Below are positions 12,522 to 34,545 of a stretch of DNA of 64,000 nucleotides, piece by piece. The position numbers were made by a program, and so were the translations under genes. Each line of letters starts with the position of its first letter. Positions within the stretch are counted from its first letter, which is position 1. The notes beneath the pieces were generated by a model. The model did not search any database, was not told where the DNA came from, and saw nothing but the letters and a program-made list of their open reading frames with translations. Source of the stretch: Clostridia bacterium (GTDB lineage Bacteria; Bacillota; Clostridia; Christensenellales; DTU072); NCBI GenBank assembly GCA_017403145.1, contig JAFQOO010000008.1, positions 102,064-166,063 of the forward strand, given 5' to 3'.

Positions 12522-12550
12522 AGCTAACCTTCTATATTACCATTAACTTT

Positions 12551-13213
12551 TTAATTAATCCTTTCGAGTGTTGAAATACTAATATAACTTATATTACCCG
12601 CGTTTACTGCCTTTACGCCAAAAGATTTAACCGCTTCATCTAAATCTTTCTTACTTATTCCATTTATTGCTTTTCTAACATCCTCTTCGGTGGTACTATC
12701 TTTATCATCAAGAATCTTTCTGATAACATTCTTAACAACAACTTCACGAAGTCTAACACCTAGTCCATCAACTGCTACACCTTTACGAGAATAAGTCGAG
12801 CAATAAATGGTACCATCATTATCCCAACCCGTGGGATTAGATAGCAATCCCAAGTTTTCCCTCACGTTATCCATGCTCCACGTTATAGTTCCATTGGCAC
12901 ACCAACCATTTCCTTTATATCCCCAAGGCATAATAAAAGAAAATGAACTTGTTTTATAGCAAACAACGTCGACAAACCATTTCTCATCGTTTTTTTTCGC
13001 CCTTTTAATAGTTTTATCTTTTATTTCAATTATTTTGTTGCTATCATCTAGTTTTAATGGTATTTCCACATCTTGGCCCTTATAATAAAACGCATACTCA
13101 TATCCCGTAGGTGCTTGTACAAGCATATCTAAAGAAATTTCCATACTCTTTTTTGCCATAAGAACACTAGAATGGTCTGGGATTCTAAATGAAATTATAT
13201 TGTTGTTTGCCAT
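12551..13213 (-). CDS. YdjI-like SPFH (Band_7_1-type) domain protein candidate
   Basis: ISLDMLVQAPTGYEYAFYYKGQ and WGYKGNGWCANGTITWSMDNV resemble, from my memory of B. subtilis YdjI, the patterns LIIRPGQDAVFLNNG and WGT...RANGTFNFKVQD. Needs a profile search. Confidence 0.45.
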   Translation of the reverse strand: MANNNIISFRIPDHSSVLMAKKSMEISLDMLVQAPTGYEYAFYYKGQDVEIPLKLDDSNKIIEIKDKTIKRAKKNDEKWFVDVVCYKTSSFSFIMPWGYKGNGWCANGTITWSMDNVRENLGLLSNPTGWDNDGTIYCSTYSRKGVAVDGLGVRLREVVVKNVIRKILDDKDSTTEEDVRKAINGISKKDLDEAVKSFGVKAVNAGNISYISISTLERIN

Positions 13214-13243
13214 ATTATACCTCTTATCGTTTGCGCTAAATTA

Positions 13244-14914
13244 TTAGTTTTCGGTTTCGGAATTAGCGTTTTCGGTTGCCGAATCTATTATTTGAGATGC
13301 TACGTCTATAGTGATAGTTTGTTCGTTGGATACGTCATTAACAACGGGTTCTTCTTTTGCTACCTCAACAACTTTAGGTTCGCTTGCGTATGCTTCGGGA
13401 GAGAGGTATCTCTTACCTTTTTCGCTTAGACCTCTACCACGATTGGAAATGTTGATAAAGCCAAGTTTAATTAAGTAAGGCTCGAATTCGCTTACGTATA
13501 CACTCGTATCCAAATGTGCTTTTGCAGCGAGAGTTTCGGCTGCCATGATGCCAACGGGGTCGTGAGAAAGTATGTCGAGGATTTCGAGGTCCTTGGTGCG
13601 CAAGCCGATGGGGTCTAGTTCTCTTTCTCTAAAGTACTCTGCTACCATAGCTTCGTTGATGATAAAGGTTTCGGCGTTTATAGCCTTGGTTCTTAGTCCG
13701 TTAACAAAAGACTCAACCTCTCTTATAGAGCTACGACAACGATTGATGCAGTCTTCAAGAACGTTTTCTTCTACTATCAATCCGTATGCTCCAAACTTAT
13801 TCTTGAAAATCTTAGCAAGTTCTTCGCGGGTGTAATCCTTTAGATAGAAGGTCAAATTATTGCATCTATCTTTTATGGTAGAAAGCACCTTATCAGCATC
13901 GGTGGTTGCACCAATGAAGGTAAACTCTTTAATCGGTATGTTTTGGGTCATACCATTATTATCCATATAACTATATACACGGTCGTTTAACAACGTTAAA
14001 AGAGCGGTTTGAATTTGCTTGGGCATTGCATGAATTTCATCAAAAGCAATTACAACGGGTAGACCATAATCGCAAATATTCATAAAGAATTTATGTAGTT
14101 TGCGTTGAGAAGCTACGTCGTTATTGAACGAAGAAGCATCCATAAAACGGAAGTCTACACCAAGTTCTTTTGCGATAAGCTTCATTAGAGTGGACTTACC
14201 TAATCCCCTACTACCAAACAATAGAATGTTATCTATATGCTTTTTACCAAGCTTTTTAGCAGCGGCAATTTCTTGCTTAATACGTCTAACAACGTGAGCT
14301 TGACCTATAAAATCATCCAAGCATTCGGGAGTAAAACCACCATCTTTATCTTTGGTTGCCCCATTTCCGTTATTTGCAACGTCAACGATAGGAACGACGT
14401 CTATATCCTTTTCGACAGCAACGGGAACTACCGGTTCCTTATCCTTTGCGGTAGGAACGTCGGGTTCTTTATCTTTAGCGGTAGGAACGGGGTCGGGGGT
14501 TTCCTTCTTGTCGTCCTTTTGCTTCTTTACAAGGTCATCGATAAGGTCGTCTATATCGTTATCTTTTTTGATAGGAGTCTTCGTGTTGTCAACAATAGAC
14601 TTTTCGATAATAGCATCCCCTCTTGCTATTTGATTAAAAGAAGGTTTGTCTTTTGTGGGAGAGGTAAAACCAAAGAATCCTTGAACGTGTGCATGGTTTA
14701 AACCGGACACCTTGATTAGTTTTATTATGTTATCGATGCTACCTGCAAATACGTCGCATTTTATTGCTTCGTAATACGTGGCAACTTTACCCAATTCTTT
14801 AACGTAGTTAGAAATTTGGGTTAGGTTTTCACATACTGCATCTATATCTTGTCCAATTTGTGCCGCATTTCTTGCAGCCACGTATTTCGCGCGAAGTTTA
14901 TCTAAATCCGCCAT
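13244..14914 (-). CDS. RuvB-like AAA+ ATPase with an N-terminal extension of about 200 aa
   Basis: FIGQAHVVRRIKQEIAAAKKLGKKHIDNILLFGSRGLGKSTLMKLIAKELGV (RuvB-type N-terminal region; P-loop GSRGLGKS instead of GPPGLGKT). Walker B VVIAFDEIH, sensor GATT. RuvB-type C-terminal winged helix LDPIGLRTKDLEILDIL...EPYLIKLGFINISNRGRGLSEKG. N-terminal helical domain, then tandem PTAKDKEP repeats (nt 14429-14488). Confidence 0.75.
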   Translation of the reverse strand: MADLDKLRAKYVAARNAAQIGQDIDAVCENLTQISNYVKELGKVATYYEAIKCDVFAGSIDNIIKLIKVSGLNHAHVQGFFGFTSPTKDKPSFNQIARGDAIIEKSIVDNTKTPIKKDNDIDDLIDDLVKKQKDDKKETPDPVPTAKDKEPDVPTAKDKEPVVPVAVEKDIDVVPIVDVANNGNGATKDKDGGFTPECLDDFIGQAHVVRRIKQEIAAAKKLGKKHIDNILLFGSRGLGKSTLMKLIAKELGVDFRFMDASSFNNDVASQRKLHKFFMNICDYGLPVVIAFDEIHAMPKQIQTALLTLLNDRVYSYMDNNGMTQNIPIKEFTFIGATTDADKVLSTIKDRCNNLTFYLKDYTREELAKIFKNKFGAYGLIVEENVLEDCINRCRSSIREVESFVNGLRTKAINAETFIINEAMVAEYFRERELDPIGLRTKDLEILDILSHDPVGIMAAETLAAKAHLDTSVYVSEFEPYLIKLGFINISNRGRGLSEKGKRYLSPEAYASEPKVVEVAKEEPVVNDVSNEQTITIDVASQIIDSATENANSETEN

Positions 14915-15082
14915 AGTTTTGCCTCCGTTAAATCTTATATATTTTTGATATCATAGATATCGTCGTTTTCTATTTGAGTTGAATAAAAAGCGCCCCTTAT
15001 TAAAACTTTATATCATCTTAACAAGGTGCGCCTTCTTCTATATTAAAGATTCCGTCTTGTCGATGCCCTATTGACAATCAGA

Positions 15083-16267
15083 CTATTTCTTTAAATGTGC
15101 TAGATATTCCATCAAGGTCATATTCTTGGAATAAGCATCAAAGCTCATCAACATTTCGTCAGTGATGGAATTGATGTATTTTCTTAGTACTTCCTCAACG
15201 TCGTCGCGAGTTACACAATCATCTTTGGTCGTTCCGTGTGCGCTAAAGTACTTAACCTCTCTTTCCAAGGGACGATTGATAACTTGCTTACAAATAGCCT
15301 TGATATCGGCACCTGCGTATCCCTCGGTCTTTTTTGCCACCCAATCTATGGTAACGTCGGGAGCACAAGGGATATCCAAACGGTCTTTTATGCTTTCGTC
15401 TTTACCAAGATAGATGGAAATAAGCTTTCTACGAGCTTCCATATCGGGAAGAGGAATATATATTTGGGTTTCGAAACGTCCACCACGTTTAACTGCACTA
15501 TCCAAAATCCAAGGACGGTTGGTAGCTGCGACTATTATACGAATTTGATTTTCTTTAGTGCCGGCAGTAAAGCCATCCATATTGGTTAATAGAGTGGTTA
15601 GTTGCTCTTTGGTGTGTCTGGATTCATCGTCTTCACGACTTGCGGCAATAGCGTCTATTTCGTCGAAGAATATAATGCATTTATCGTACTTCTTCGCTTG
15701 CTCGAAAATCGCGTGAATTACCTTTGCGCCATCACCAACCAAATTTGCCATAACGTCTTTGATTTGAACAACGGCTATTTTGCATCCGAGCTGTCCTGCT
15801 AGACATTTTACCAAATGGGTTTTGCCCGTTCCGGGAGGTCCGTAAAGAAGGATTTGTAGGCCTATGTCTTTACGATACTTTCTATAGATAGGTGCATATT
15901 TAGGGGACAAGGCGGCAAAAACGTTTACTAATAATGCATCTTTTACCTCTTGTAGCCCTGCAACGTCCTTCATTGAAAGGTTAGGAATGTCCGCAGCAAA
16001 CCAATCGGTTTTACTAGCATCCTCCGATGCCGATTGTTTGGTGGCAGGAGCAGGAGCGTTCTTGATTTTTTCTAAATCATCAAGGAACTTCTTAACGATT
16101 TTTGCATTTTGAACGAATTCGCTCTTATATACGTCGGCAACGTTAGGGTTTTGCACCTCTTTATTTGCATATTGCAAAATAATTTGTGCATACTCTTTAG
16201 CACCCTCTAGGTCGTTTTCTTGGCGCTTTTGATTATATATTGCTAAATATCTTTTAAAGGTTTGCAT
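15083..16267 (-). CDS. Vps4/katanin-clade AAA ATPase with an N-terminal MIT-like helical domain
   Basis: [13 protein letters not shown] (Walker A), [10 protein letters not shown] (Walker B). [28 protein letters not shown] closely parallels the Vps4 second region of homology [26 protein letters not shown]. N-terminal ~75 aa helical segment [18 protein letters not shown]...[15 protein letters not shown] fits a MIT-like pattern. Confidence 0.8.
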   Translation of the reverse strand: [394 protein letters not shown]

Positions 16268-16318
16268 AGTTTTATTACTACTAAAGGTTAACTCGTCTTA
16301 TATTTTAGAGAGGCCTTA

Positions 16319-16957
16319 TTAGCCTTTTTTGTTTTCTGCATCTATCATTGCAGTGATTGCATCAATACTAGCATCCATAGTAGTGGGTGCAGCTACGTTT
16401 GAAGGAACGGGAGCGGTGCTCTTAACGAGGCCTTCTCTTAGACGCAAATCTCTAGCTGCTTTTTCTTTTTCGAACCTTTGTTGAATTTTGCTATCCATGA
16501 TGTTCTTATCACCAAACAAACGACGCATTTCTTTGTCTTTGGGATTTCTTAATGCAGTACGTAGTCCACGGATAGACTCTCTCGCCTTGTTAATATCTTT
16601 ACGAGTAGCTATAAGTTTATTGGTAAGTTTTTCAAGGTTAGGTATTTTGGAAAAAGCTTTTCTGCAGTTAGTGATTGCTTTTACGATATCTTCTATATTG
16701 GAGAAAGCCTCGGATATAGTAGCAGCTCTGATGATTTCCTTTTCAATAGCGGCAAAACCATCTCTAAACTCTAGTATTTCAGCTTTTTCTAATAGCATAT
16801 CGTTTGAGCCTTCTTCATCGCCATCGCGAGCCATCTCATCTGCCCAATCATTGTAATTATCGCTTAATTTGTCGAAATTTTTAACTACTTCACGGGCAAG
16901 AAGGGTTGCTTCTGCAATTTGCTCTTTGCGTTTGTACTCTTTGTCAACTTTGCTCAT
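16319..16957 (-). CDS. ESCRT-III/PspA-superfamily-like helical protein (candidate), 212 aa
   Basis: All-helical and charged. The central segment AFSKIPNLEKLTNKLIATRKDINKARESI resembles the CHMP/Snf7 alpha3-4 region (compare ...LKLPQIQKIMMEFERQAEIM...). Flexible tail ends in the amphipathic MDASIDAITAMIDAENKKG. Directly upstream of the Vps4-like gene. Confidence 0.5.
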   Translation of the reverse strand: MSKVDKEYKRKEQIAEATLLAREVVKNFDKLSDNYNDWADEMARDGDEEGSNDMLLEKAEILEFRDGFAAIEKEIIRAATISEAFSNIEDIVKAITNCRKAFSKIPNLEKLTNKLIATRKDINKARESIRGLRTALRNPKDKEMRRLFGDKNIMDSKIQQRFEKEKAARDLRLREGLVKSTAPVPSNVAAPTTMDASIDAITAMIDAENKKG

Positions 16958-16979
16958 AGTTTTGTCTCCTTTATATAAA

Positions 16980-17711
16980 TTAATTTTTATTAGTATTGGT
17001 GTTAATTGCGGTTTGGGGGTCTTCCACAGTTATAGGCATATCAATAGCACGAACGTATGCCTGCTCTCTTTCTCTCTTCTTTTGAATGTTGAGTCTCATC
17101 TTTTCTTGTTCTTCTTTTTCTCTTTCCAAGCGAGACTTGTCCGATTCTTGGTCCATTAGTTTAAACTTTTCTGTTATGGTCGATTGTTTTTTGCTATACA
17201 TTTCAATAACGATTTTGTGTTTAGCAACGACTTGTTTCAATTTAGCCATTAGGTCTACAACCATTTTCTCAATATTTTCGGTCTCTTTTATATTGCGAAC
17301 CATACGAGGAAGCATTTTTTCAGGAATACTTTTGATAACTTCTTCGTACAAACCATTATTTACCAATGCTTGTGCGTGATTGCAAATTTCCCATAGTCCA
17401 ATATAGATATTATTTAAAAATTGGAGTCGACCTTGTAGTATATCCATTCTTGACTCTATCGATTTATATTGCGTTGAGTATGTGTCGTAATGGGCTTTCT
17501 CTACACCAGAAAGAGATTCTATATCTATATCGAGATATTTTTCAATATTCTTTTCTACATCGTTTTGCTCTTTTGCCAATTTTTTCATATCCTCCAATTC
17601 TGCCTCTTTCTGTTCTTTGATAAAACGAATACAAGCTTCAACTACGTCGATTTCTTTTTTTGCTTTTTCTTCGGTATAAATAAAACTTTTAAACCAGTCT
17701 GCTATAGTCAT
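16980..17711 (-). CDS. ESCRT-III/PspA-superfamily-like helical protein (candidate), 243 aa
   Basis: Long helical, coiled-coil sequence. Shares FIYTE and NG(L/Q)YEEVIK(S/G)I motifs with ORF 17860..18210. K/E/R-rich region followed by a Pro-containing tail IDMPITVEDPQ. Confidence 0.45.
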   Translation of the reverse strand: MTIADWFKSFIYTEEKAKKEIDVVEACIRFIKEQKEAELEDMKKLAKEQNDVEKNIEKYLDIDIESLSGVEKAHYDTYSTQYKSIESRMDILQGRLQFLNNIYIGLWEICNHAQALVNNGLYEEVIKSIPEKMLPRMVRNIKETENIEKMVVDLMAKLKQVVAKHKIVIEMYSKKQSTITEKFKLMDQESDKSRLEREKEEQEKMRLNIQKKREREQAYVRAIDMPITVEDPQTAINTNTNKN

Positions 17712-17776
17712 TAATGTTCTCCTATTTGTTTGATGCTTTGGGATAAAAAAATGCCTTTTTCCTCCCCATAAACATT

Positions 17777-17805
17777 ATTATATTATATATTATACAAAAA
17801 TTCAA
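17777..17805 (-). promoter_or_regulatory. Consensus sigma-A promoter upstream of ORF 16980..17711
   Basis: On the minus strand: TTGAAT (17800-17805), 17 nt, TATAAT (17777-17782). Confidence 0.55.
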
Positions 17806-17859
17806 TAGCTATTTTAAATTTTTAAACTAAATCTTTCTTAAAATTTCATATGACGGATT

Positions 17860-18210
17860 TTAATCCATAAAATCCATAACAGCTATTTTTGTAAGGTCTT
17901 TACTCAATTTTTGTAAGATATTCGTACAAGCGTCGATAGCATTTTCAAAATTCTTATTACTGTTAGTTATACGTGCCAAATCTTTTTTCGAAATGCCTTT
18001 TATAACTTCTTCGTATTGACCATTCAACATAAGAGCTTGGGATACTTCGTAAATGGCTTTTATCGTTTCGTAGATATCGCTTTTACTTTTTCCCTCCTCG
18101 ACCGCCTGTTTTTTGCATACTGCGTTTCCACGCTTTTCGACTTCAAGAACTCTTAACGTCGCTCTTCTTTCGGTATAGATAAACTCTTTGATACTATTGG
18201 TTAATTTCAT
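17860..18210 (-). CDS. Short paralogue (116 aa) of the N-terminal and core part of ORF 16980..17711
   Basis: Shared motifs: SIKEFIYTERRA vs SFIYTEEKA, and NGQYEEVIKGISKKDLARI vs NGLYEEVIKSIPEKMLPRM. Has its own promoter and AAGGAAGAGG RBS region. Confidence 0.55.
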   Translation of the reverse strand: MKLTNSIKEFIYTERRATLRVLEVEKRGNAVCKKQAVEEGKSKSDIYETIKAIYEVSQALMLNGQYEEVIKGISKKDLARITNSNKNFENAIDACTNILQKLSKDLTKIAVMDFMD

Positions 18211-18266
18211 TTTACCTCTTCCTTTTAGTTTTTAGGGGAGAATAACCTATCCCCTCTTATGCCTCT

Positions 18267-18295
18267 ATTATATAATTTTGAATATGGAACTTCAA
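18267..18295 (-). promoter_or_regulatory. Consensus sigma-A promoter upstream of ORF 17860..18210
   Basis: On the minus strand: TTGAAG (18290-18295), 17 nt, TATAAT (18267-18272). Followed by a leader hairpin AGGGGA-taggttatt-CTCCCCT. Confidence 0.55.
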
Positions 18296-18360
18296 GGGCA
18301 AAATCCTTAACGAATTACAACTTTTAATATTGATTTTCATAAAAATTCAACCATTTTGGA

Positions 18361-18397
18361 AATTCCCCGCCTACTCTCGTGGGATAAGCGGGGAATT
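18361..18397 (-). terminator. 10-bp GC-rich hairpin just downstream of the T4CP-like gene (possible terminator or processing site)
   Basis: AATTCCCCGC-(17 nt)-GCGGGGAATT. On the minus strand it is followed by TTTCC AAAA, so the U tract is weak. Confidence 0.4.
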
Positions 18398-18403
18398 GGT
18401 TGA

Positions 18404-20239
18404 TTAGTCGTCGAATACTCCCCAAGCTCCTAAGATGTCTTGGTTAGTTCTACGCTTTTTAGTCTTAGCGTTACGGTCGTAAGGGCTTATGGTTTCCGAT
18501 AAAAGCTTTCTCTTTCCGAAAATGGACTTGCTTATGGGCTTACGGAAATCTTGATAGGTTCCTTGCTCTGCCGCTACGTAACTTCTTATATATTGAGCGG
18601 TTACAAGAGGTAGGTGCAGACGCTTCATATAGATATGTCCGGGCTTAATAAGGTCAAGCTGGCTGATGGGCAAAAGTGCTACTTCGACAAGGTCGGAGTT
18701 ATCTAGACCGCTATAAGCGCGATAGCTGGGGACGGTAGTCCTACCGCAGTTCTCGGAAAACTTTACGAGGGTTGCTCTGTTTTGCGAACCGAGGAAGGTC
18801 AATGCGTTACAGTTATCTCTTATGATTTCGGCGCCGTTTACTCCATAAAGCTGTTCGATTTGGTCGTACGATTGAACGTATAAGTGGAACCACATATTAC
18901 GCGAACGCGAGGTTGCAATTTTGTTGTGGAAATCGGTTATTTCGGGAATATTACCGAACTCGTCCAATATAAAGTGAATGGGGCGAGCGTTGGCATTGGT
19001 TTCCGCCATATGGAGTCCTATGCGATAGAAATAGTTGATAAAGCTTGCAGCGATAAAGTAGTCGCTCTTTTCGTAGTCGCGAGTACTTACGAAAATGGCA
19101 ACGGGCTTGGTCTTTGCAACTTCTTCTATGTCGAAAGTGGTTTCACAAGTGAGTTGATAGATATAAGCTTGGAACCAGCTACACATCTTGTTATCGAATA
19201 CGCCGACGTAGCTTTTCATAGTGTTATTAGCATTATTTAAACAGCTGCGGAAAAGGTCGATGGTGGAGGGCTTTCTTCCTTTTATTAAAGGATGGTCGTC
19301 TAGCGAACAGTCTTGCGACACTATTGGAACACGCACGTTCATATAGAAATCGTAAAGGCTTTTTATGGTGAACTGTTCTCTAGTTAAGCCAATTTGAGGG
19401 TCCTCGACGTCTTCGAGCATACAAGTTAGTATACCTCTAAAAAGCTCTTGTGCACCATACTCCCACAAGGGGTCTTTTTGAGATTCTACCGTTATCAAAT
19501 CATGGCTCAATTGGTTAACCATATGGACTATTTCGGATTCCATCATCTCTCTTTGCACGGCTATATAATGCGAACAACTCTCAAAGCTAGCGAAGGCTTT
19601 ATTACCCAAAACGTAGAAGATTGAACCATACTCTTGTATGGAGTCGAAGAGCTCGTAATTATCAAGAGAGCCTGAAACTTCTTTCAAATCTCTACCCAAA
19701 TTTAGGTACTCTTGTTTCGCGTCGAAAATTTCGCCTAGAGGATTCCAGCTATGGGACTGGAATATATCACGGAAATTCAAAACGTATATTTGATAGCCTT
19801 GTGATTGGATAAAGGAAGCGTGCTTTTCAAATAGCTCGCCCTTGGGGTCGGTTGCAAAGATATGTGGCTTATCCTTTTGATATGCTATAGCGCGAAGCTG
19901 AGGCTCTACGCAACCGGTGGTTTTACCGCTACCGGTAGTACCTGCGCAAAGCTCGTGGCAACAAGGAAGATAGTAATATCTCAAGCGACAAGCTTTTTGT
20001 TCTTCTTTAGAAAGAGTTGTATAGCTTGCCATATCGTAAGCTTTGCCATCGGGCGCGACGAAATCGCTAGCAACGGGATAACCATTCATTACTCTATTAG
20101 GTAGTTCGTCGTAGAAAACTTTTTGAATGCAGTGCTCTTCTTTCAACTCGGTATAGTCGATTTTCCTAGAATATTCACAATATTCTTGTATATAATTCTG
20201 GCGACGTATATCATTTATGTTTGTCTTATGCATGGTCAT
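18404..20239 (-). CDS. Soluble VirD4/TraG/TraD-like (type IV coupling protein family) ATPase
   Basis: Walker A CAGTTGSGKTTGCVEPQL; ATDPKGELFEK...SWNPL; Walker B region IHFILDEFGNIP; SRSRNMWFHLYVQSYDQIEQLYG...IIRDNCNALTFLGSQN...FSENCGRTT. All match T4CP signatures. No N-terminal TM helices. Start moved to the ATG at 20239 (MTMHK), which has AGGAGGA 8 nt upstream; this removes the overlap with the upstream gene. Confidence 0.8.
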   Translation of the reverse strand: MTMHKTNINDIRRQNYIQEYCEYSRKIDYTELKEEHCIQKVFYDELPNRVMNGYPVASDFVAPDGKAYDMASYTTLSKEEQKACRLRYYYLPCCHELCAGTTGSGKTTGCVEPQLRAIAYQKDKPHIFATDPKGELFEKHASFIQSQGYQIYVLNFRDIFQSHSWNPLGEIFDAKQEYLNLGRDLKEVSGSLDNYELFDSIQEYGSIFYVLGNKAFASFESCSHYIAVQREMMESEIVHMVNQLSHDLITVESQKDPLWEYGAQELFRGILTCMLEDVEDPQIGLTREQFTIKSLYDFYMNVRVPIVSQDCSLDDHPLIKGRKPSTIDLFRSCLNNANNTMKSYVGVFDNKMCSWFQAYIYQLTCETTFDIEEVAKTKPVAIFVSTRDYEKSDYFIAASFINYFYRIGLHMAETNANARPIHFILDEFGNIPEITDFHNKIATSRSRNMWFHLYVQSYDQIEQLYGVNGAEIIRDNCNALTFLGSQNRATLVKFSENCGRTTVPSYRAYSGLDNSDLVEVALLPISQLDLIKPGHIYMKRLHLPLVTAQYIRSYVAAEQGTYQDFRKPISKSIFGKRKLLSETISPYDRNAKTKKRRTNQDILGAWGVFDD

Positions 20240-20256
20240 ATTCGTATCCTCCTTTA

Positions 20257-21186
20257 TTATAATCCAAAGCCGAAGCCGGCACGCTTGAGAGGTTTGAACG
20301 AGGAGTTGGTGAGCTCCTTCCACTCTTTTCTCTCATAGTTATTTATGTAACCCATTCTATCGTAGTTGTCGATATTAGCGTTTTGCATTGCTTCAACGAA
20401 TGCGAAGTCAATTCTATTTACGCCTACTCCGAATACGATATCTTGTTTTACGCTTGCGATAAAGACGTAATAGTTACGAGCCTTTTCGCTATAATTCTTT
20501 TCTTCTTCCTTAGGTATGATGGTGTAACCTTCGTCAAGATACTTCTCTGCAAGAGAGGCTACTTCGTACATAAGTTCGCTGTTGGTTTTATCCCCGGTAA
20601 GCTCGTAGGCATAGGCTAGCATATACATAGAAGGGATATCACCCCAAGCAACACACTGTGATAGACGATGTATGCCCTTTTCGTAATTTTGCTCGCAACC
20701 GATACCTAAAAGGTATAGCAATCCAGTTTGTCTGGTTAATAGAACGTGTCCCGAAGAGGCACTCGCTCTAATTTTGTTAAAACGTGTATGAGGCTGATAT
20801 AGAATAATTTGAGTATAATCAAACCATTCTTCATTAAGCATTCCTTCACATTTAGTTGCCATAGAGTGCAATTCACTAATAGCGTCGCACTTCATATCCA
20901 TAATATATTGTTCATCGTTGAGTTCGTCGTAGTTTAGCACTTCAACGTTCATCGCGTTGACGGTACGACGGTCTTCTAGATAGTTGATTCCCATCATTTT
21001 GTCGCTAAAAATGGTGGCCTTGGCAAATTCTACGAAAGACTTATCACTCTTATATGCATTGCCGATAAAAGATATTATTTTCTTCATATCTTCTTGATAA
21101 GCAATAGAGTGAGCGTTGGACATCAAGGTCGTAGAAAATACCATCGTGTAATATTGTTGATAATTTTTAAATACTTCGTGCATCAT
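20257..21186 (-). CDS. Sel1-like repeat (SLR/TPR-type) protein
   Basis: TGLLYLLGIGCEQNYEKGIHRLSQCVAWGDIPSMYMLAYAYELTGD fits the Sel1 repeat consensus. The start is uncertain. I favour the ATGATG at 21186 (GGAAGGA RBS) over the track start at 21327, which overlaps the upstream gene by 62 nt. Confidence 0.55.
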   Translation of the reverse strand: MMHEVFKNYQQYYTMVFSTTLMSNAHSIAYQEDMKKIISFIGNAYKSDKSFVEFAKATIFSDKMMGINYLEDRRTVNAMNVEVLNYDELNDEQYIMDMKCDAISELHSMATKCEGMLNEEWFDYTQIILYQPHTRFNKIRASASSGHVLLTRQTGLLYLLGIGCEQNYEKGIHRLSQCVAWGDIPSMYMLAYAYELTGDKTNSELMYEVASLAEKYLDEGYTIIPKEEEKNYSEKARNYYVFIASVKQDIVFGVGVNRIDFAFVEAMQNANIDNYDRMGYINNYERKEWKELTNSSFKPLKRAGFGFGL

Positions 21187-21265
21187 CTTTATAATCCTTC
21201 CTTTAGTTTCGTAGTTATGTTTTTGCGATTGGGTTGCTTCATGGTTAAAATAACTTGCGTTGTTT

Positions 21266-22213
21266 TTAGTTAGCCTCCATTTCATCCATAAATTTTCTTT
21301 CGTTGATATTGCCTTTGATATAATCAACGAGTATTGGGTAATATTTTGATAATGTTTGGGTTACCGAGTCAAAGATTTCTTCGTATCTTCCGGCTGAGAA
21401 AGTTGCTTTGTCCGAGTCTACTATTATGCGGTAAGTAACCTGCCCTTTATAGAAGTCTACGTTAAATAATCCGTACTCCATTTTGTTGTTTAGATGGGCG
21501 ATAGCCATCATAACGTCAGCCCCTCTTTCTAGCTCGAACCCACAAGGTAAAAGGTGTGTTAGTGCTATCAATTCGCCCTCCATATCACCTTTTAAAAACA
21601 TCGGTATGGTCCTACCCGATTCGGGTGTCTTACCTTTAAGCTTCCACTTATATGCGGTTAATCCGTGATGGGAAGTTACAAACAAACCGAATTTTTCACA
21701 AGCCTTTTGTGCGTGTCTTATGCGCAATCCCTCGTCGCTATTACGGGTGTCGCCGGAATAATAGTAAGTGTTTCTTTTGAAACTATTAACGTTTCCCGTT
21801 TCCAGCAAGGTTGCCAAATCCTTTTCAAAAGATTCGCAGGCTCGTTTTAAGGTGAATATTTGGTGTTTTAGTGATACCGTGCTTGTTAGCGATGGTTCTA
21901 TAAAGATTTTTCTTTTAACGCCTACCTTTCTTTTATCTATATCGCAAACGTAAACTATATTTTTTCTCCAGCTATCCCTGATTAGGTTGTTCAAGTAAGC
22001 TACTGCTAGTACTGCATCGAGTAAATTGTTCCTTGCGATTTTTATATGATAGTAAACTAGAAATTCAAGTTCGTTTTTTTCGAGGTCTAGCCTTACCTTC
22101 AAATCGTAGTTCTCGTCTTCCCAAGAGGCTTCGCATATTTTATTGGTAATATTTTTTCTTTCTTTGATTTTTGCCATTATAAAATCAACTGATTTTCTGG
22201 TTGCTTCTTGCAT
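21266..22213 (-). CDS. Tandem YbjN/CesT-type (secretion-chaperone-like) domain protein, candidate
   Basis: Two internal repeats with the pattern ...LLDAVLAVAYLNNLIRDSW...VYVCDIDKRKVGVKR... and ...GADVMMAIAHLNNKMEYGLFNVDFYKGQVTYR..., reminiscent of YbjN-family domains. First gene after the promoter. AAAGGAGG RBS. Confidence 0.4.
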   Translation of the reverse strand: MQEATRKSVDFIMAKIKERKNITNKICEASWEDENYDLKVRLDLEKNELEFLVYYHIKIARNNLLDAVLAVAYLNNLIRDSWRKNIVYVCDIDKRKVGVKRKIFIEPSLTSTVSLKHQIFTLKRACESFEKDLATLLETGNVNSFKRNTYYYSGDTRNSDEGLRIRHAQKACEKFGLFVTSHHGLTAYKWKLKGKTPESGRTIPMFLKGDMEGELIALTHLLPCGFELERGADVMMAIAHLNNKMEYGLFNVDFYKGQVTYRIIVDSDKATFSAGRYEEIFDSVTQTLSKYYPILVDYIKGNINERKFMDEMEAN

Positions 22214-22937: not shown

Positions 22938-23068
22938 ACTAATCGTGGAACTCCTTTATGATTTTCCACGATTAGTATTACCCACTTCAAATTATTTTTC
23001 TCGTGGAATTCCACGATATTGACAAAATGCTCGACTTGTTATATCCTACTATCGTGGAATTCCACGAT
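22938..23068. promoter_or_regulatory. Operator cluster: three dyads built on ATCGTGGAA/TTCCACGAT around a divergent promoter
   Basis: TACTAATCGTGGAA-13 nt-TTCCACGATTAGTA (22938-22977); TCGTGGAATTCCACGA (23001-23016); ATCGTGGAATTCCACGAT (23051-23068). TTGACA (23019-23024), 17 nt, TATCCT lies between the last two dyads. Confidence 0.65.
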
Positions 23069-23083
23069 AGTAGGAGTTTGCTT

Positions 23084-23545
23084 ATGATATTGACTTTTAT
23101 AGGTCATCGCGACACTAGAATAACAGAAAAACTAAAAAAAGAAGTCCGTACACATCTAAGAAACTTTATCAATTTAAACGTTAAAACTTTTTACTGCGGG
23201 GGTATGGGTGCCTTTGATAATTTGTGTGCAGAATTACTAAAAGAGCTTAAAGAAGAATTTCCTCATATTAAAAGATATCTGGTCGTTCCCTATCTTGACA
23301 ACAATTTTTTAAGAATAGCTCAAGAACTAGTTTCAACAAATTATTATGATGAAATTTTGTACCCTCCAATTGAAAACGTCTTTCCAAAATATGCCATTTT
23401 AGCTCGAAATAAATATATGATAGATAAAGCCGACCTCTTAATTTCATTCGTATCACAACGATATGGTGGAGCATATCAATCTTTTTTATATGCTAAAAAG
23501 AAAAAGTCTTCAATTCAAATTATTAACTTAGGAAGTTTAAATTAA
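23084..23545 (+). CDS. SLOG-superfamily DUF1273 / YpsA-like protein
   Basis: MILTFIGHRD...FYCGGMGAFDNLCAE...LARNKYMIDKADLLISF match the DUF1273 (YpsA/YoqJ-like) pattern. I prefer the start at the ATG at 23084 (AGGAG 7 nt upstream). The track start at 23003 lies in the operator and promoter region. Confidence 0.7.
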   Translation: MILTFIGHRDTRITEKLKKEVRTHLRNFINLNVKTFYCGGMGAFDNLCAELLKELKEEFPHIKRYLVVPYLDNNFLRIAQELVSTNYYDEILYPPIENVFPKYAILARNKYMIDKADLLISFVSQRYGGAYQSFLYAKKKKSSIQIINLGSLN

Positions 23546-23554
23546 AAAGGGCTC

Positions 23555-23917
23555 TTTTATGGATACCCTATAAGGGATTTTTAATTTAATACAAAAGTGT
23601 AGCCCACTATACTTCGCTTTAAGGCGAAACATGGTGGGCTTTTCTTATCCACAAAAGATTAAGATGATTTAGTTTTATTTTTAGCCTTGTGGCTAAAAGT
23701 GATATTGTTTACGCAGTAAACAGTTTAGACGAGCGAAGCGAACGCCAACTGCGTAAGCAGTTTTATTTTGGCTATCGCCAAAGTTATATTAAATAAATCC
23801 TTAACTCGCCGTAAGGCGAATATAACTGCCGTAAAGCAATCTCACTCGTCATTAGACGAATATCACAAATCCGTAAGGATTTATTTAGTTGCCGAATCCC
23901 TTGTAGGGACTCGGCTT
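23555..23917 (+). repeat. Copy 1 of a hairpin-rich intergenic element (candidate structured ncRNA or MITE/BOX-like element)
   Basis: Near-identical to 34682-35006 apart from one variable module. It contains at least 9 short stem-loops, several with GTAA loops. It is flanked by AAAAGGGCTCTTT (23545-23557) and AAAGAGCCCTTTTT (23918-23931), which are reverse complements of each other. Confidence 0.75.
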
Positions 23918-23945
23918 AAAGAGCCCTTTTTGTTTTAATAAATAA

Positions 23946-25331
23946 TTATCCCTCTATCCTTTCTTCGCTCGGTGTAGAGCTTACGTATAGGGTTTCGGGA
24001 TGCTTCTTTTGATAGTACCACGCACCCATAATCGGTATCAACGTTAGGAGTGCTACGCAAGCAGCTATCAAGAACAAATGCCACGAGGGGGTATATCCCG
24101 GTTGTATTGCTCCGTTTTGTTCCATTTGTTCAATATATATTCCTAGATTTTCGACTATAGGTTCGGCGATAACGGGACCGGATATCATAGGTACCAATAC
24201 GTAAAATACCAATCTTACGCCCTCTAGTTGTCCGCGTTGTGATTCGGGATATAGATTCTTACACCAAATCATTAGTGCTTGATATATGCACATATATCCA
24301 CCGCCAACGAAGATAGTACCAAGTATTACTACCGCTGTCATTGCGCCACCCGTTCCACTTAGCGCTCCGGTAACCGATATAATGCCAAGACCAACAACGT
24401 TCATAAGTAGCGCCACTATTAGTACGGGAATAAACTTTTGCTTGTTTATAAACTTGCCCGCTATAAGAGTAAAGGGTATTGCTATTACTAAACCAACGCC
24501 AAGCCAAACTCCGGCAAGTCCCGTATCGTATCCAAGAGAGTGGATAAAGTAAATAGTCATATAGGGGAAATAGATATTAAAGCTTATGAAGAACATTGCA
24601 AATATGCAAAGAACTATAAGCAAAAGTTTGTTCTTCCAAAGAAGCTTAAAGTTGAAGGCTTGGGCGAATTGATGCCAAAAGCCCTTTTCGTCCACGCTGG
24701 GTGTAAGCATAGGACTATCTTTAACCGCCCACATACAATATAGACCGACTAGGATAACAAACGCACCCATAATTAGGAAGAATGCAAAATATCCTACTGC
24801 ATCTATTATGATACCGCCTATCAAAGTACCTACGATGGTTGCTATAACGGGCTGAACCGCTATAACTGCGCCCAGAGGACCGCGATTTTCGGGAGTGGTG
24901 ATATCGGTAAGGTGAGGATTGAAGCCAGCATCGTTGCCAAGCGAACCGAAGAATGACATCAGAGCATCGGCAACTATAACCATTACGCCAAGAGCAACGA
25001 CGTTACCTGCGAATATTCCGTCGGCAAAGAAATCTATTACTCCAAACAATATGGTAAATATACCCCACAAAATATATCCCCAAACAATAAATGGCTTACG
25101 CTTACCCATTCTATCGCTCCAAGTTCCCGAAAGAAAGGTGGAGAAGGTTGTTACTATTGCGGAAATAGCAACCATTGCGGTGATAATCCACGGAACCGCT
25201 CCTATTCTACCATAAACGAAGGTGTTGAACCATTGGTTTTCGATGTTCCAAGCAAGCTGACCGGCAAGACCTGCCACCCATATTACTATCCAAGTTTTTG
25301 CACCAAGACCGCTTTTTGCTTTGTTAGACAT
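23946..25331 (-). CDS. MFS-type transporter (GPH/sugar-cation symporter-like)
   Basis: 461 aa with about 12 hydrophobic segments. SGTWSDRMGKRKPF motif typical of the MFS loop 2-3. Confidence 0.8.
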   Translation of the reverse strand: MSNKAKSGLGAKTWIVIWVAGLAGQLAWNIENQWFNTFVYGRIGAVPWIITAMVAISAIVTTFSTFLSGTWSDRMGKRKPFIVWGYILWGIFTILFGVIDFFADGIFAGNVVALGVMVIVADALMSFFGSLGNDAGFNPHLTDITTPENRGPLGAVIAVQPVIATIVGTLIGGIIIDAVGYFAFFLIMGAFVILVGLYCMWAVKDSPMLTPSVDEKGFWHQFAQAFNFKLLWKNKLLLIVLCIFAMFFISFNIYFPYMTIYFIHSLGYDTGLAGVWLGVGLVIAIPFTLIAGKFINKQKFIPVLIVALLMNVVGLGIISVTGALSGTGGAMTAVVILGTIFVGGGYMCIYQALMIWCKNLYPESQRGQLEGVRLVFYVLVPMISGPVIAEPIVENLGIYIEQMEQNGAIQPGYTPSWHLFLIAACVALLTLIPIMGAWYYQKKHPETLYVSSTPSEERIEG

Positions 25332-30519: not shown

Positions 30520-31377
30520 TTATTTCTCCATTAATTTCTTGTAAGCGGGGAGCAATATTTTTTCAAATCTTTGTCTTAATATATATTTGTAAAATTCTTT
30601 ATGAGTATCGGTTAAAAACGGGGTTTCGTCAATCAATTCGTCGATTTTTTCTTGCGAATATCTTTCGCATATTTTTATAACCGCTTCATTACATTCCTTA
30701 AACTCTAATGAATTGATTACTTCAAAATAAGAACTCTTTTTGCCGTTTAATTGGACTTGCGACGTGGGGAATTTATAAATCCTTTCGTTTGTCATTTCTT
30801 CCGACTGCATAATTTGTTTCATCATATCATCATCTACAAGCTGAGAATAAAGTGATGAGCCATTGTCAAAAACGGGGGCAAGTGTATATTTGTTGTTCTT
30901 TTTTAAGAATCCCCAATTCCCACCGTGTCTATCAAAGTTACCAATTAATGCGTCCACAACATAAATATCCCAAAACATATTTATTGTTTCTTGAACGTTT
31001 GTAAGTTTTACATTATCTCGAAGCATTTGCATTATATCTTGATAGGAATATTGATAGGTTTCCTTGTCTTGTTCAAGCGAACTTTCACCAACATCGTTAA
31101 AGGGTACGAATTGCGTTTCGCCGTTAATAAAATTTTTGCACGCCACAACTTGCTCACCATTGTATAATCCAAGATAGGTGTCTTGCGTTTCAAAGCCAAG
31201 CAACTCAAAAATATGCGAGCCGACGTACTCAGAGATGTGATTAAGACGTTTCACACCGAAATTTGTTTGCTTTTGAAATTTAATCATATATTCAAAGCCG
31301 TCAACATTTACGCCAAATTTACGTTCTGTTCCACCATAATATGTGTTAGTTTTTTCGTATTTTGAAAAGTCTATCAT
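30520..31377 (-). CDS. HipA-C/CtkA-like Ser/Thr kinase domain protein
   Basis: VVDALIGNFDRHGGNWGFL carries the HipA-family catalytic D-R-H-x-x-N loop. At 285 aa it lacks the HipA N-terminal domains. Confidence 0.75.
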   Translation of the reverse strand: MIDFSKYEKTNTYYGGTERKFGVNVDGFEYMIKFQKQTNFGVKRLNHISEYVGSHIFELLGFETQDTYLGLYNGEQVVACKNFINGETQFVPFNDVGESSLEQDKETYQYSYQDIMQMLRDNVKLTNVQETINMFWDIYVVDALIGNFDRHGGNWGFLKKNNKYTLAPVFDNGSSLYSQLVDDDMMKQIMQSEEMTNERIYKFPTSQVQLNGKKSSYFEVINSLEFKECNEAVIKICERYSQEKIDELIDETPFLTDTHKEFYKYILRQRFEKILLPAYKKLMEK

Positions 31378-31680: not shown

Positions 31681-34545
31681 TTAAATTCCTTTTACAGCAA
31701 AGCTTACGCCATCAAGTATATTTTCATCGCCATATTCTTTTGCTGTAGAAACTCTAATGGTTACGACCTCCCCTGCTTCTACTGCAAATACGTCGTCAAC
31801 AAGCTCGGTATAAACGTCGTCTACAAATACAGTAATGGTTGCATCAATGTTAATAACTTGTATTGACATTGCTTCTAGTACAGTATAAGTGTAATAATAT
31901 TCGCTTACTCCGGGGTTGTCGATAGAAGTTCCTTCTATAAAGTCGGGAGTATTTATGGTTTGAGAGAATACCAAAGCAAAGGGGTTATCGCTTGTTCCGG
32001 TTGCAACTGCATCACCGGAGGTAAGGTCCAAAACCTCGGTTCCCCATCTAAGCTTAACGTCGCCTTGAGGAGCGGTAATCTTTATGCAAAGTCTAACGTC
32101 CAAGGATACTTGTAATACGCTTGCATTCTTGGTTGCATCGTATTCGCTTACAGCTCTAGGATTGGTAAAGTTATAGTTATCTAGGTTGTAGTTATAGCAA
32201 GCAAGGTTATAATTGCCGGCTACGAATACGTAGTAGAATGCGGGTGCTTGTTCGGTTAGGTTTCTGCTTGACCAAGTAGCTTCAATATATGCTTCGCCAC
32301 TTTCGGAAATGGATACAGCATAAGCAGGAGCATTGCTTTGTCCTTCGCTTGCCCAAAGATAAGGTAATTCTTGCGAGCCAACTCTTGATAGGCTAAGAGC
32401 ATAATAGGTTTCGTATTGCCACTTATCTGCGCCCTCTAATCCATCTGTATCATAATCTTGCATTGCAAAATATGAACCATCTGCATTTTCGTAGAATTTA
32501 ATATAATTTGCGGGTAGGTTCTTAATATCTGCTTTAATCAAGTGAATAGGATACTCTTGGATATTTTTAAAGGTTACGATACCATTTTCGCTAATAGCGC
32601 TTGCAACAATGTTTCCGTCATAAATGAGGTCTACTTCAATACCGGATGCGGTAAGGTCGTTTTCAAGACCAATGATTTCTTTAGTTATGTTTACAACGTA
32701 ATCGTAGTATGCGGGAGCATAGCTAATATTGAAGGTTGCTTGACCTTCCCCTATTACTGCAAAATTAATGGTGTCGCCCTTTGCAATAACCGCCTTGTTC
32801 GTTGCAACACCTTCTATTTCGAAGCTAACGTCGTTAGAAGAAGAAAGGGTTAAGGTTGCGGTAGAGTCGTCTGCTTCAAAGGTGTAATAATATTTACCAT
32901 TTACTAGGTTTACGGATACTTCTCCGTCAATTTCGGTTTCCTTAATTAGCTCGTTCGCTCCGCTTATTCCCTTTAGTTCAACGCTTGCGCCCCAGTAACC
33001 GAGGTTCTCGCGAGCCTCGATTAAAAGTATTTGGTCGCTTGCTCCTAGCCCTACCTTTACTTCACCATCATCTAGTTGATATTGGTTTTCTTCTTCGTCA
33101 ACAACAATAACGTCAGCACCATCTATAACTAAGGTTGCACCTTGAGGATTAACCACCTTGCAATAAATCTTTTCGTTTACGTTAAGAGAGGGAAGGGAAT
33201 TGAATCCATAAACCAAATCGATGGGAGCTTGTTCACTACCAAGAACCAAGTTATCGTTAATTAATATATTGTGATTGGTAACGCCGTTTTTCTCTATTTT
33301 ATAAAGCGGAGATGCAGCTTCTCCAACGTTTTCGGTTTTAACGAAATATACGTCATAGGGTATCATAGATAAAGAAGCAACACCGGTTGCATCAGTTTCT
33401 GCAGATGCAACTTCTTCAAAAAGGCGGTTATAGAAAACAACTCTTATTCCTTCTACGGAAAGAGTTTGATTAGTTCTATCAACGTTAACGGTATAATTAA
33501 CTTTGTTGAGGAAGGTAAAATTTATGAGCATATTGTTGCTCGTTAAGTCTTGTACGCCTTCTTCTCTATATCCCCAAACGTATCGAGGGTCGTTTTCTAC
33601 GTGCTTTGCTATTAGATAGTAATTGTAGATGGTATCGTTTCCTACTTTGTAGGAAATCTCCTTATAAATGGGAAAAGTTGCTTTACCATCTGCGCCCGTT
33701 ACAACAGTGGTTACAAGAGCATCGGTTTCTGCATCGTATACTTTAACTTCTATATCGCTAAAGTTCGAAAAAAAGCCACCGACTGTAACGGTGGCCATAT
33801 TGAGCTTAACTATTTCTATCGTAATAGTCTTATCGCTATCGAAATCGTCGTAGTGAGTGTAGTCGGTAGAGCCCGGAAGATTTAGCTTTTCGCCATCTTT
33901 GAGTGCATATCCATTGGGTGTTGCATTTATGGATACGTATGCGTTTTCTACACTATAGCCGGATATTGCATATGATGCTTGACCATTTACGTCGGTGAAA
34001 GGCTTGGTTGCCATACAAGTTTCGCCAAAGCAAAGTTGAACTTGTACGCCTTCTACTGCATCACCATTTTGGTCAACTACTTTGATTTGATAAATGTCCT
34101 TTTTAACCGCTGCGTTAGAAGTTAAAAGCTTACCTTCTTCAAAACGGAATATAGTTTGGTCGATATCGTATTCTTCGGGAACTTCCAATACTTCTACCAT
34201 AACCAGCATTGCTCCCTTACGTACTCTAAACACTACGGTTCCGTTTGCATCGGTGGTCTTAACCTCGTCATTGGTTCCGTTAACGTTAACCATTACGGAT
34301 GCGCCTTCAACAGGGTTTAGGTCGGTATCTCTAAGAATAAAGGTGTATTCCTCTTTACCATCGTCGGTGGTTGTATCTCCGACGTTATTATCGTTAGAGA
34401 TTTTTTCTCCGCAGTTATCACATTTGAAATCATTGTCTTCGTCTATGTGCTCGGTGCATTTGTCGTTACAAGCAAACAATGATATTGCCATAACAGCAAC
34501 GAGAGCGATAGTCAAAACCAACGTTAATATTCTTGATTTTTTCAT
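31681..34545 (-). CDS. Large surface lipoprotein: CHCC mini-domain plus prealbumin/Cna-B-like beta-sandwich repeats
   Basis: Signal peptide with lipobox LFAC. CNDKCTEHIDEDNDFKCDNCGE motif, then TDANGTVVF-type beta-sandwich modules. 954 aa. Confidence 0.75.
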   Translation of the reverse strand: MKKSRILTLVLTIALVAVMAISLFACNDKCTEHIDEDNDFKCDNCGEKISNDNNVGDTTTDDGKEEYTFILRDTDLNPVEGASVMVNVNGTNDEVKTTDANGTVVFRVRKGAMLVMVEVLEVPEEYDIDQTIFRFEEGKLLTSNAAVKKDIYQIKVVDQNGDAVEGVQVQLCFGETCMATKPFTDVNGQASYAISGYSVENAYVSINATPNGYALKDGEKLNLPGSTDYTHYDDFDSDKTITIEIVKLNMATVTVGGFFSNFSDIEVKVYDAETDALVTTVVTGADGKATFPIYKEISYKVGNDTIYNYYLIAKHVENDPRYVWGYREEGVQDLTSNNMLINFTFLNKVNYTVNVDRTNQTLSVEGIRVVFYNRLFEEVASAETDATGVASLSMIPYDVYFVKTENVGEAASPLYKIEKNGVTNHNILINDNLVLGSEQAPIDLVYGFNSLPSLNVNEKIYCKVVNPQGATLVIDGADVIVVDEEENQYQLDDGEVKVGLGASDQILLIEARENLGYWGASVELKGISGANELIKETEIDGEVSVNLVNGKYYYTFEADDSTATLTLSSSNDVSFEIEGVATNKAVIAKGDTINFAVIGEGQATFNISYAPAYYDYVVNITKEIIGLENDLTASGIEVDLIYDGNIVASAISENGIVTFKNIQEYPIHLIKADIKNLPANYIKFYENADGSYFAMQDYDTDGLEGADKWQYETYYALSLSRVGSQELPYLWASEGQSNAPAYAVSISESGEAYIEATWSSRNLTEQAPAFYYVFVAGNYNLACYNYNLDNYNFTNPRAVSEYDATKNASVLQVSLDVRLCIKITAPQGDVKLRWGTEVLDLTSGDAVATGTSDNPFALVFSQTINTPDFIEGTSIDNPGVSEYYYTYTVLEAMSIQVINIDATITVFVDDVYTELVDDVFAVEAGEVVTIRVSTAKEYGDENILDGVSFAVKGI

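Follow-up and report, generated by a model that had tools for sequence, protein, structure and literature searches.

A Gut-1-related modular repeat of gut Clostridia lodged in the loops of intrinsic terminators

What is a chain of small hairpins doing between two convergent bacterial genes? The question is raised by an intergenic stretch at positions 23545-23931 of a 64,000-nucleotide piece of DNA, here called the window, from a Clostridia bacterium of the Christensenellales (contig JAFQOO010000008.1 of assembly GCA_017403145.1). A first-pass annotation of the window, made from the letters alone, proposed this stretch as a candidate structured RNA and likened it to modular repeats such as the pneumococcal BOX element. 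What it overlooked is that the element, a chain of stem-loops at 23559-23917, is an insertion within a terminator hairpin. The insertion lies in the loop of a pre-existing intrinsic terminator at the 3' ends of genes. The element is also multi-copy and polymorphic between strains, its inner modules are exchanged, and its stems are kept by compensatory change. [quoted passage not shown]

Insertion in the loop of a terminator hairpin

The stretch is bordered by two stop codons, that of a ypsA-like gene on the left (23003-23545, plus strand; Pfam YpsA) and that of a major facilitator superfamily (MFS) transporter gene on the right (23946-25331, minus strand), the two genes being convergent. The clearest evidence of insertion comes from a metagenome contig, L001, which encodes an identical YpsA-like protein and the MFS gene with only 43 bp between them. 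This empty allele reads AAAAAAGGGCTCTTT-C-AAAGAGCCCTTTTT, that is GGGCTCTTT-C-AAAGAGCCC followed by a T-run, an intact hairpin, and in its context (...TTAAAAAAGGGCTCTTT-C-AAAGAGCCCTTTTTG...) the intergenic stretch is an intrinsic terminator of the canonical bidirectional kind. Between GGGCTCTTT and AAAGAGCCC, the same two stem halves, the window and L121 have the element. The 5' half of the host site (23544-23557) consists of an A-run and GGGCTCTTT, the left half of a terminator hairpin common to the ypsA-like and MFS genes. The 3' half (23918-23931), identified by comparing the empty and filled alleles, consists of AAAGAGCCC and a T-run. The interval given in the first-pass annotation does hold the element, but its outermost parts, 23544-23557 and 23918-23931, are the halves of the host hairpin. 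This host stem closes in every predicted fold, whether minimum-free-energy structure or centroid, with RNA parameters on both strands and with DNA parameters. The loop C of L001 has no counterpart in the filled allele, and L001 is therefore not an assembler's collapse of a repeat.

A third allele, L122, has the same junctions with another element between them. Its host flanks are identical to those of the window at 395/400 and 87/90 positions, its 5' module at 147/150 and its 3' end at 43/45, and its interior at only 112/165, with whole modules replaced. Because these modules recur in other species (e.g. L049 and L010), the variant points to an independent insertion or to gene conversion from another copy, not to point mutation. 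Presence/absence polymorphism has been seen at this one locus, which is empty in L001, filled in the window and L121, and variant in L122. The same locus shows a second, different rearrangement in L122, where the ypsA-like gene upstream is truncated and unrelated sequence with a long palindrome (CCCACT..CGTGGAATTCCACG..AGTGGG) stands instead.

The first-pass annotation also noted a second copy, which is indeed present, at 34685-35007 on the plus strand, between the stop codon of one gene (35035-36459, minus strand) and the promoter of another (31681-34545, minus strand). A host stem can be read from the sequence here as well: AAAGTCC at 34675-34681, preceded by an A-run, pairs with GGGCTTT at 35009-35015. 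It is closed in the minimum-free-energy fold of the minus strand, and the centroid keeps only one outer pair. The two copies share 95% identity over the 5' 164 nt and 100% over the final 42 nt, and diverge in the middle. The alignment bears out two further details of the annotation, namely that the stem TCGCC/GGCGA of copy 1 has become TTGCC/GGCAA in copy 2 with pairing kept, and that a whole module has been swapped, TGTTTAC..GCAGTT of copy 1 being GCAAGACAAATCTTGC in copy 2.

The annotation had proposed a count of further copies. The 22-nt right end (RE) of the element, GAATCCCTTGTAGGGACTCGGC, has at least 116 exact matches in a species-representative genome collection, in about 50 gut metagenome-assembled genomes (MAGs), so the element is not without homologues. 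All of the matches listed are in gut MAGs, assigned to Christensenellaceae, Clostridia, Catabacter, Candidatus Scatosoma, Candidatus Stercoripulliclostridium and Eubacteriales, and these MAGs come from human, sheep, goat, yak, water deer and buffalo samples. Several MAGs have at least five to seven loci each among the matches listed, scattered over many contigs. Four further contigs of two loci (L119, L120, L123 and L124) end within the RE, as is expected if the element is a multi-copy repeat. The MAGs compared do not include the organism of the window. The closest match to the window among them is in a Christensenellaceae MAG, L021, where a 1.7-kb gene segment is matched at 80% identity; the element of L021 has 83% identity to that of the window over the 5' module and 96% over the 3' arm. 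The region of a HipA-like kinase gene (30520-31377, minus strand) is the only window segment with a syntenic match among the 116 MAG loci (80%, L021).

Host stems are also seen across the family. In 75 copies the flank before the left end (LE) pairs with the flank after the RE. The mean best stem has 9.4 Watson-Crick pairs, compared with 6.9 for mismatched flanks, and stems of at least 10 pairs are found in 34 copies, compared with 6 in the mismatched-flank control. A T-rich run lies within 30 nt after the RE in 69 of the 75 copies and an A-rich run in 3, and copies with a strong flank stem usually have both the upstream A-run and the downstream T-run (27/37). Where both neighbouring genes could be called (65 copies), 36 copies lie in convergent gaps, 27 in tandem gaps (16 and 11 by orientation) and 2 in divergent ones. 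A fuzzy LE pattern had paired only 8 of the 116 REs, missing most copies because left ends vary, and was replaced by flank complementarity and nhmmer. The RE also occurs by itself, at the tip of terminator stems in L014, L046 and L054, as the 25-nt hairpin GCCGAATCCCTTGTAGGGACTCGGC; this lone hairpin may be the smallest unit that can move, or what is left after deletion of an element.

Some neighbours of the two window copies are worth recording. Copy 1 is about 1.3 kb past the right edge of an island-like gene set on the minus strand (~7200-22200), which includes a DarT1-associated NADAR antitoxin (7225-7866), an Hsp70-like protein, RuvB-like and other AAA ATPases, a TraG/VirD4-type coupling protein (18404-20323) and several open reading frames (ORFs) without a Pfam match. 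Copy 2 sits between two of three large putative surface proteins (31681-34545, 35035-36459 and 36527-39400, all on the minus strand), which have in common repeated N-terminal, cysteine-containing, signal-like segments (repeat families D5 and D7).

Anatomy of the element and its membership of Gut-1

All ten stem-loops listed in the first-pass annotation are present where it placed them, and the fold is far more stable than expected. Compared with dinucleotide-preserving shuffles, none of which was as stable as the native sequence, the 391-nt stretch folds as RNA with -146.5 kcal/mol (z = -11.4) on the plus strand and -146.8 kcal/mol (z = -11.8) on the minus strand; with DNA parameters, z = -9.1.

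The element begins with the LE (23559-23580, plus strand, as for all parts below), which is exact in both window copies, was aligned over 58 homologues and contains a small hairpin, CCCT-ATA-AGGG (23566-23576). Read from the sequence, the LE is an imperfect inverted repeat of the RE, matching its reverse complement at about 14 of 22 positions; the two have a core in common, TCC(C)TAYAAGGGA, and each is also a hairpin by itself. Next comes a large hairpin (23601-23646, the hairpin proper at 23601-23640), in which AGCCCAC..GTGGGCT encloses CTTCGC/GCGAA, followed by TTTTCTT. It has 15 consensus pairs, and the T-run after it is present in 58 of 58 aligned sequences. A 9-mer resembling a DnaA box, TTATCCACA, overlaps its end (23645-23653) and is perfect in both window copies (23645 and 34771). 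The left arm (23679-23789) contains four hairpin modules (23679-23698, 23706-23722, 23747-23762 and 23767-23782), each followed by a linker of the GTGATAT/GTTATAT type. This is the most variable part, with modules replaced both between copies and between strains.

The centre is a half-unit, AAATAAATCC (23791-23800), that is complementary to GGATTTATTT at 23877-23886, giving a 10-bp long-range helix in the consensus fold of 65 sequences. The right arm (23806-23866) has three small hairpins, TCGCC-GTAA-GGCGA, TGCC-GTAA-AGCA and TCGTC-ATTA-GACGA, which are followed by ATATAAC, ATCTCAC and ATATCAC linkers, the reverse complement of those in the left arm. The TATAAC/TATCAC spacers of the first-pass annotation, and its perfect TTATCCACA in each copy, are real. 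A terminal unit (23867-23890) consists of AAATCC-GTAA-GGATTT and ATTTAGTT, its GGATTTATTT being the partner of the centre, and the RE (23891-23917, hairpin 23891-23915) consists of GCCGA-ATCCCTTGTAGGGAC-TCGGC and TT, with a 22-mer that is exact in both window copies. One hairpin unit has been found in both arms in opposite orientations: the left arm has it as TTGCCTATCGGCAA, and L037 and L070 have the reverse complement, TTGCCGATAGGCAA, in their right arms. The constant part is the centre, the right arm and the RE; the left portion is frequently replaced or truncated. Over 68 LE-RE pairs the element is 257-409 nt long from end to end and has no ORF.

Does selection act on pairing rather than on sequence, as had been suggested from the two copies alone? 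The 58-65 homologues bear this out. In the large hairpin 3 of the 15 consensus pairs are changed on both sides with pairing kept (58 sequences), two of the three stemming from a single subfamily split of 13 sequences. In the 3' arm the figure is 8 of 32 (65 sequences), and all eight are in the unit hairpins of the right arm, three in number and with 12 pairs in total. Across the 65 sequences neither the RE hairpin nor the 10-bp centre/terminal helix varies, and so neither shows covariation. These counts show that pairing is kept and are not a significance test, because the cells are not independent events. Such pairing is expected equally for RNA and for single-stranded or extruded DNA. Loops are varied (GTAA, GTTA, GATA, ATTA, GAAA, GTA and others); those with GTTA, GATA, ATTA or three bases are as common as GTAA, which the first-pass annotation had highlighted. 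We rejected a GNRA-loop interpretation on the same grounds.

A scan of the window against Rfam at the gathering threshold gave no match. In a scan by E-value, however, the model Gut-1 (RF01706) matched copy 1 at 23815-23891 on the minus strand over its full length, with 48.2 bits against a gathering cut-off of 50 and E ~1e-8. Copy 2 has an equivalently placed full-length match (34903-34980, minus strand, 34.5 bits), so both window copies score below the cut-off. Among 18 family loci there are 10 matches with 50.4-55.5 bits, each abutting the RE on the strand opposite to it. As matches at the homologous position exceed the cut-off and abut the RE, the arm of small hairpins is Gut-1, and the window copies are members that fall slightly below the threshold. 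The element is therefore a divergent member of the Gut-1 motif family and not a new class of RNA.

Gut-1 was described as a probable non-coding RNA, rated 'Y' for being RNA, on the basis of human-gut sequences only and with no sequenced organism (Weinberg et al. 2010, PMC2864571). We searched the literature on Gut-1, RF01706 and Christensenellaceae repeats and found nothing later than that paper. The element resembles Gut-1 in its three or four tandem small hairpins, its GUGAUAU/GUGAAAU linkers and its source in gut-derived Clostridia. Unlike the Gut-1 seeds, the subfamily of the window is AT-rich, with almost no primary sequence in common with them except the linkers. Furthermore, Rfam treats Gut-1 as a 77-nt small RNA (sRNA) gene, whereas in the window it forms one arm of an insertion of ~360 nt, which occupies a terminator loop and shows presence/absence polymorphism.

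The flanks in the alignment of Weinberg et al. show the same plan as the window element. In BAAZ01000095, for example, GGGGCUGCC ... GGCAGCCCC enclose a large hairpin, hairpins linked by GUGAUAU, a centre and hairpins linked by AUAUCAC. We also scanned metagenomes for three GTGATAT linkers at distances of 12-17 nt. Of the 120 loci returned, 28 have hairpin-like, non-identical units, and L128, L205, L235, L180 and L166 score 59-75 bits for Gut-1. The plan of these GC-rich members is a host stem and T-run, an end hairpin, about four GTGATAT-linked units, a centre half-unit TATATTCGCC and about four ATATCAC-linked units, of which the last contains GGCGAATATA, complementary to the centre TATATTCGCC. 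In L156 the corresponding pair is TTTATTCGCC with GGCGAATAAA, a compensatory difference. Unit numbers are equal in the two arms (~4 + 4) at L205:3478-3790 and other GC-rich loci. Since AT-rich and GC-rich families show the same plan, the architecture and the heptamer linkers are conserved between families otherwise without common sequence. The predicted fold of L205 pairs left-arm with right-arm linkers in a rod with side hairpins, an alternative to a fold of local hairpins throughout; this linker-linker pairing is partly predicted for L205 (3478-3790) and is not predicted for copy 1.

Mobile repeat, functional RNA or binding site

How might a repeat of this kind spread? In the mechanism that we propose, an enzyme encoded elsewhere would move the element in trans. 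The enzyme would probably recognise folded single-stranded or extruded hairpin DNA, like the HUH/Y1 enzymes of repetitive extragenic palindromic (REP) elements and of IS200/IS605, and would integrate the element into the exposed loop of terminator hairpins. The parts recognised would be the conserved end hairpins and the heptamer linkers (GTKATAT/ATATMAC), and the stems would need only to pair. The compact fold of the insert would then rejoin the halves of the host stem, and the element would bring a hairpin and T-run of its own. For these two reasons the insertion should be tolerated, and termination of the flanking genes would survive. Any RNA would be made by read-through, as part of a 3' untranslated region (3' UTR) and without a promoter of the element's own, and copies would recombine with one another, or undergo gene conversion, at the conserved ends and linkers, which would account for the turnover of modules. 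The identity of the RE across genera, together with the conserved linkers, argues that something reads the element.

Several observations weigh against a mobile repeat. We found only one pair of empty and filled alleles, and a search of Joint Genome Institute (JGI) metagenomes returned no empty version of the copy 2 site. Because a structured insert could also have been deleted to give the empty allele, insertion as the direction of the event is inferred. There is no clear target-site duplication; the junctions have T or TT on both sides, not consistently, and for each of the duplication models TT, TA and TTA some junctions do not fit. The inverted repeats at the ends are imperfect (~14/22 positions). 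No transposase, recombinase or HUH gene was detected by Pfam among 39 window ORFs, or by clustering of ORFs within 2.5 kb of the 116 copies, where the clusters were spurious ORFs across the element and housekeeping genes, and about 0.88 Mb around the copies contained no multi-copy or transposase-like ORF family. A related autonomous element, with the same ends and a transposase, was likewise not found among 68 LE-RE pairs, the 116 neighbourhoods, the ~0.88 Mb of flanks or the window. Neither the element nor its RE occurs in IMG/VR, GenBank phages or PLSDB plasmids. An RE that is identical across many genera without a phage or plasmid carrier fits a purely selfish element no better, and perhaps less well, than an element useful to its host.

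This last point leads to the rival that we take most seriously, although we think it unlikely: that the element is first of all a functional structured RNA (Rfam's type is 'Gene; sRNA'), either an RNA of ~350 nt or a 3'-UTR domain, that binds or sponges a protein, or shields the upstream mRNA from 3' exonucleases, with mobility being secondary. It is partly compatible with a mobile repeat. The covarying stems are what one would expect of such an RNA, and Weinberg et al. rated the motif 'Y'. Linkers and architecture are kept between the AT-rich and GC-rich families, the GC-rich members have C(UUCG)G-type loops on the GUGAUAU strand, the RE is identical in more than 50 species, and the element is located where read-through transcripts exist. 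Against this, its presence is optional (the empty allele of L001), copies differ in how many modules they have and in which ones, even at a single locus, the loops are unconserved, and the element has no fixed orientation with respect to the gene reading into it (16 vs 11 in tandem gaps).

The transcriptional signals also speak against a discrete RNA. The first-pass annotation envisaged one from the plus strand, but our promoter scan found nothing above background within the element and so no convincing internal promoter. A perfect TTGACA-16-TATAAT at 34610-34583 (minus strand) is outside copy 2 and belongs to the downstream gene. The large hairpin with its T-run looks like a terminator on the plus strand; to judge by its sequence it would stop transcripts entering from the left, and thus halt them ahead of the arrays. 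On the minus strand, which is the orientation of the Rfam model, transcripts of the MFS gene or of 35035-36459 would cross the arrays and end at the host stem and T-run. A scan for tRNA and tmRNA found none.

Can the wobble pairs identify the strand? On the plus strand the right arm has ~24 G:U and 5 C:A cells, which favours plus, whereas the left arm has 7 C:A and 1 G:U among distinct units (~5 lineages), which favours minus. The GC-rich arrays show the opposite trend in unit orientation (6 vs 2). The large hairpin has one wobble and one C:A whichever strand is taken, and is thus uninformative, and in the RE hairpin, as read from its sequence, an A:C on plus is a G:U on minus. As arms and families disagree, we rejected these counts as strand evidence. 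The lack of a consistent strand counts against a functional RNA, and the choice of the plus strand in the first-pass annotation is not established by contradictory wobble tests and a Rfam model on minus.

An array of protein-binding sites in double-stranded DNA, similar to iterons or to the sub-terminal transposase-binding repeats of Tn7 and Mu, and read by a nucleoid, partition or recombination protein, strikes us as improbable. It would account for a 21-22-bp period, for linkers that recur every 20-22 bp and are inverted between the arms, as in binding sites at transposon ends, and for the fact that the conserved sequence is in the linkers and not in the stems. However, the sequence of the 13-17 bp that separate the linkers drifts, yet compensatory change keeps it palindromic, a pattern that argues for selection on intrastrand pairing and not on a duplex-binding site, and the flanks of the copies that were searched have no linked candidate gene for the protein.

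A role in replication, either as a box site that titrates DnaA or as an auxiliary origin, is more improbable still. The window has five perfect DnaA boxes where 0.5 are expected; two are in the elements and two just after dnaA (63200 and 63273). However, there is one box per copy, and TTATCCACA is perfect in 35 of 58 distinct members, with even a relaxed consensus found in only 36 of them. The box is absent from 6 of 6 GC-rich Gut-1 elements, and the copies are spread over many contigs per MAG rather than near an origin. The box, absent from 23 of 58 members and from GC-rich relatives, is accordingly not a conserved feature of the element. As a separate observation, the dnaA ORF is at 61783-63150 (plus strand; Pfam Bac_DnaA, 220 bits), with perfect boxes after it at 63200 and 63273 (to 63281) and a fifth at 8560. 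The chromosomal origin of replication is probably at the right end of the window, as dnaA and two perfect boxes are there.

The remaining alternatives, hairpins brought together by chance in AT-rich intergenic DNA and an artefact of assembly, have only the low G+C of the region in their favour and can be dismissed, given a fold of z ~ -11 that no shuffle equals, a second copy and at least 116 homologous loci from independent assemblies.

The preferred reading, a mobile modular repeat, has a more ambitious form that we offer as speculation. Elements of the Gut-1 type could form a separate class of mobile DNA, homing specifically to the loops of intrinsic terminators by means of a hairpin- or single-strand-specific enzyme. 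The inverted, heptamer-spaced hairpin arms would be its recognition array, and the class would be conserved in AT-rich and GC-rich gut Clostridia and would rebuild a working bidirectional terminator around itself. It may also provide a 3'-UTR structure of use to the host, and conservation across genera would then be explained. If the targeting of terminator loops is enzymatic, this points to a hairpin-specific mobilisation system not yet known. The present evidence does not make the element a new kind of system, but it provides an orphan Rfam motif with a context and with a mechanism that can be tested.

These results are of use to the annotators of gut genomes. Gut-1 has been in Rfam since 2010 as an orphan 'sRNA' from human-gut reads, without host or context. 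It now gains hosts among the gut Clostridia of humans and ruminants (Christensenellaceae, Catabacter, Scatosoma and others), a full anatomy (~260-410 nt) and a new interpretation as one arm of a mobile modular repeat lodged in terminator loops. We could not find its hosts, the full element, the terminator-loop location or the insertion polymorphism in the literature searched. Matches to Gut-1 should not be counted as independent sRNA genes, and assemblers of metagenomes should note that contigs break at these elements. The results also bear on 3' UTRs and termination in a gut family that is discussed in clinical settings.

One more repeat in the window deserves mention. Between an ABC-transporter gene and a gene for a glycoside hydrolase family 3 (GH3) glycosidase there are three tandem repeats of ~150-165 nt (56519-56950; period 151 and 166). 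Each has a conserved CCTCTTAAAAACRC...TAGTTTGGATG segment, followed by a long terminator-like hairpin and then GTTTTATGAAG. Short hydrophobic ORFs begin at ATGAAG, and no Rfam match was found at the gathering threshold. These could be tandem units of a small peptide or a small RNA.

Comparison with known repeats

The REP elements and BIMEs of Enterobacteria and Pseudomonas are mobilised with a REP-associated tyrosine transposase (RAYT), a Y1/HUH enzyme. We found no RAYT gene in the window. Features in common are short palindromic units outside genes, at 3' ends and in convergent gaps, that form mosaics with conserved linkers and opposite unit orientations, with compensatory changes in the stems, no transposase encoded in cis and, for the element probably, co-transcription in 3' UTRs. 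There are also differences. In the window the units are inverted between two arms, whereas those of REPs alternate; the element has defined ends and lies inside the loop of a host terminator; and its conservation extends across genera, while a REP is usually confined to one species.

BOX, RUP, SPRITE and the bacterial MITEs are small, non-coding, multi-copy repeats with stable folds that are found between genes or in 3' UTRs; some resemble terminators, and they insert into each other (PMC10969869). The element is likewise small, non-coding, multi-copy and dispersed, and at one locus it shows presence/absence polymorphism. Its variable number of inner modules recalls BOX, with its structure boxA-boxB(n)-boxC (PMC10969869), and the resemblance noted in the first-pass annotation has held up, with hairpin modules swapped, added and lost between copies. 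The likeness is one of description. Unlike these repeats, the element has no clear target-site duplication or parent insertion sequence that we could find, its target is apparently the loop of intrinsic terminators, and its inner modules are hairpins of 13-17 nt spaced by a conserved heptamer.

Palindrome-associated transposable elements (PATEs), which derive from IS200/IS605, offer a third comparison. The element differs from them in having ends that are imperfect inverted repeats of each other, no conserved 4-5-nt target 5' of the LE beyond TT, and no Y1 transposase seen near its copies. Like PATEs, it has sub-terminal hairpins at both ends and no obvious target-site duplication, and PATEs are non-coding derivatives that are moved in trans. 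Their single-stranded DNA logic would fit insertion into the exposed loop of a hairpin.

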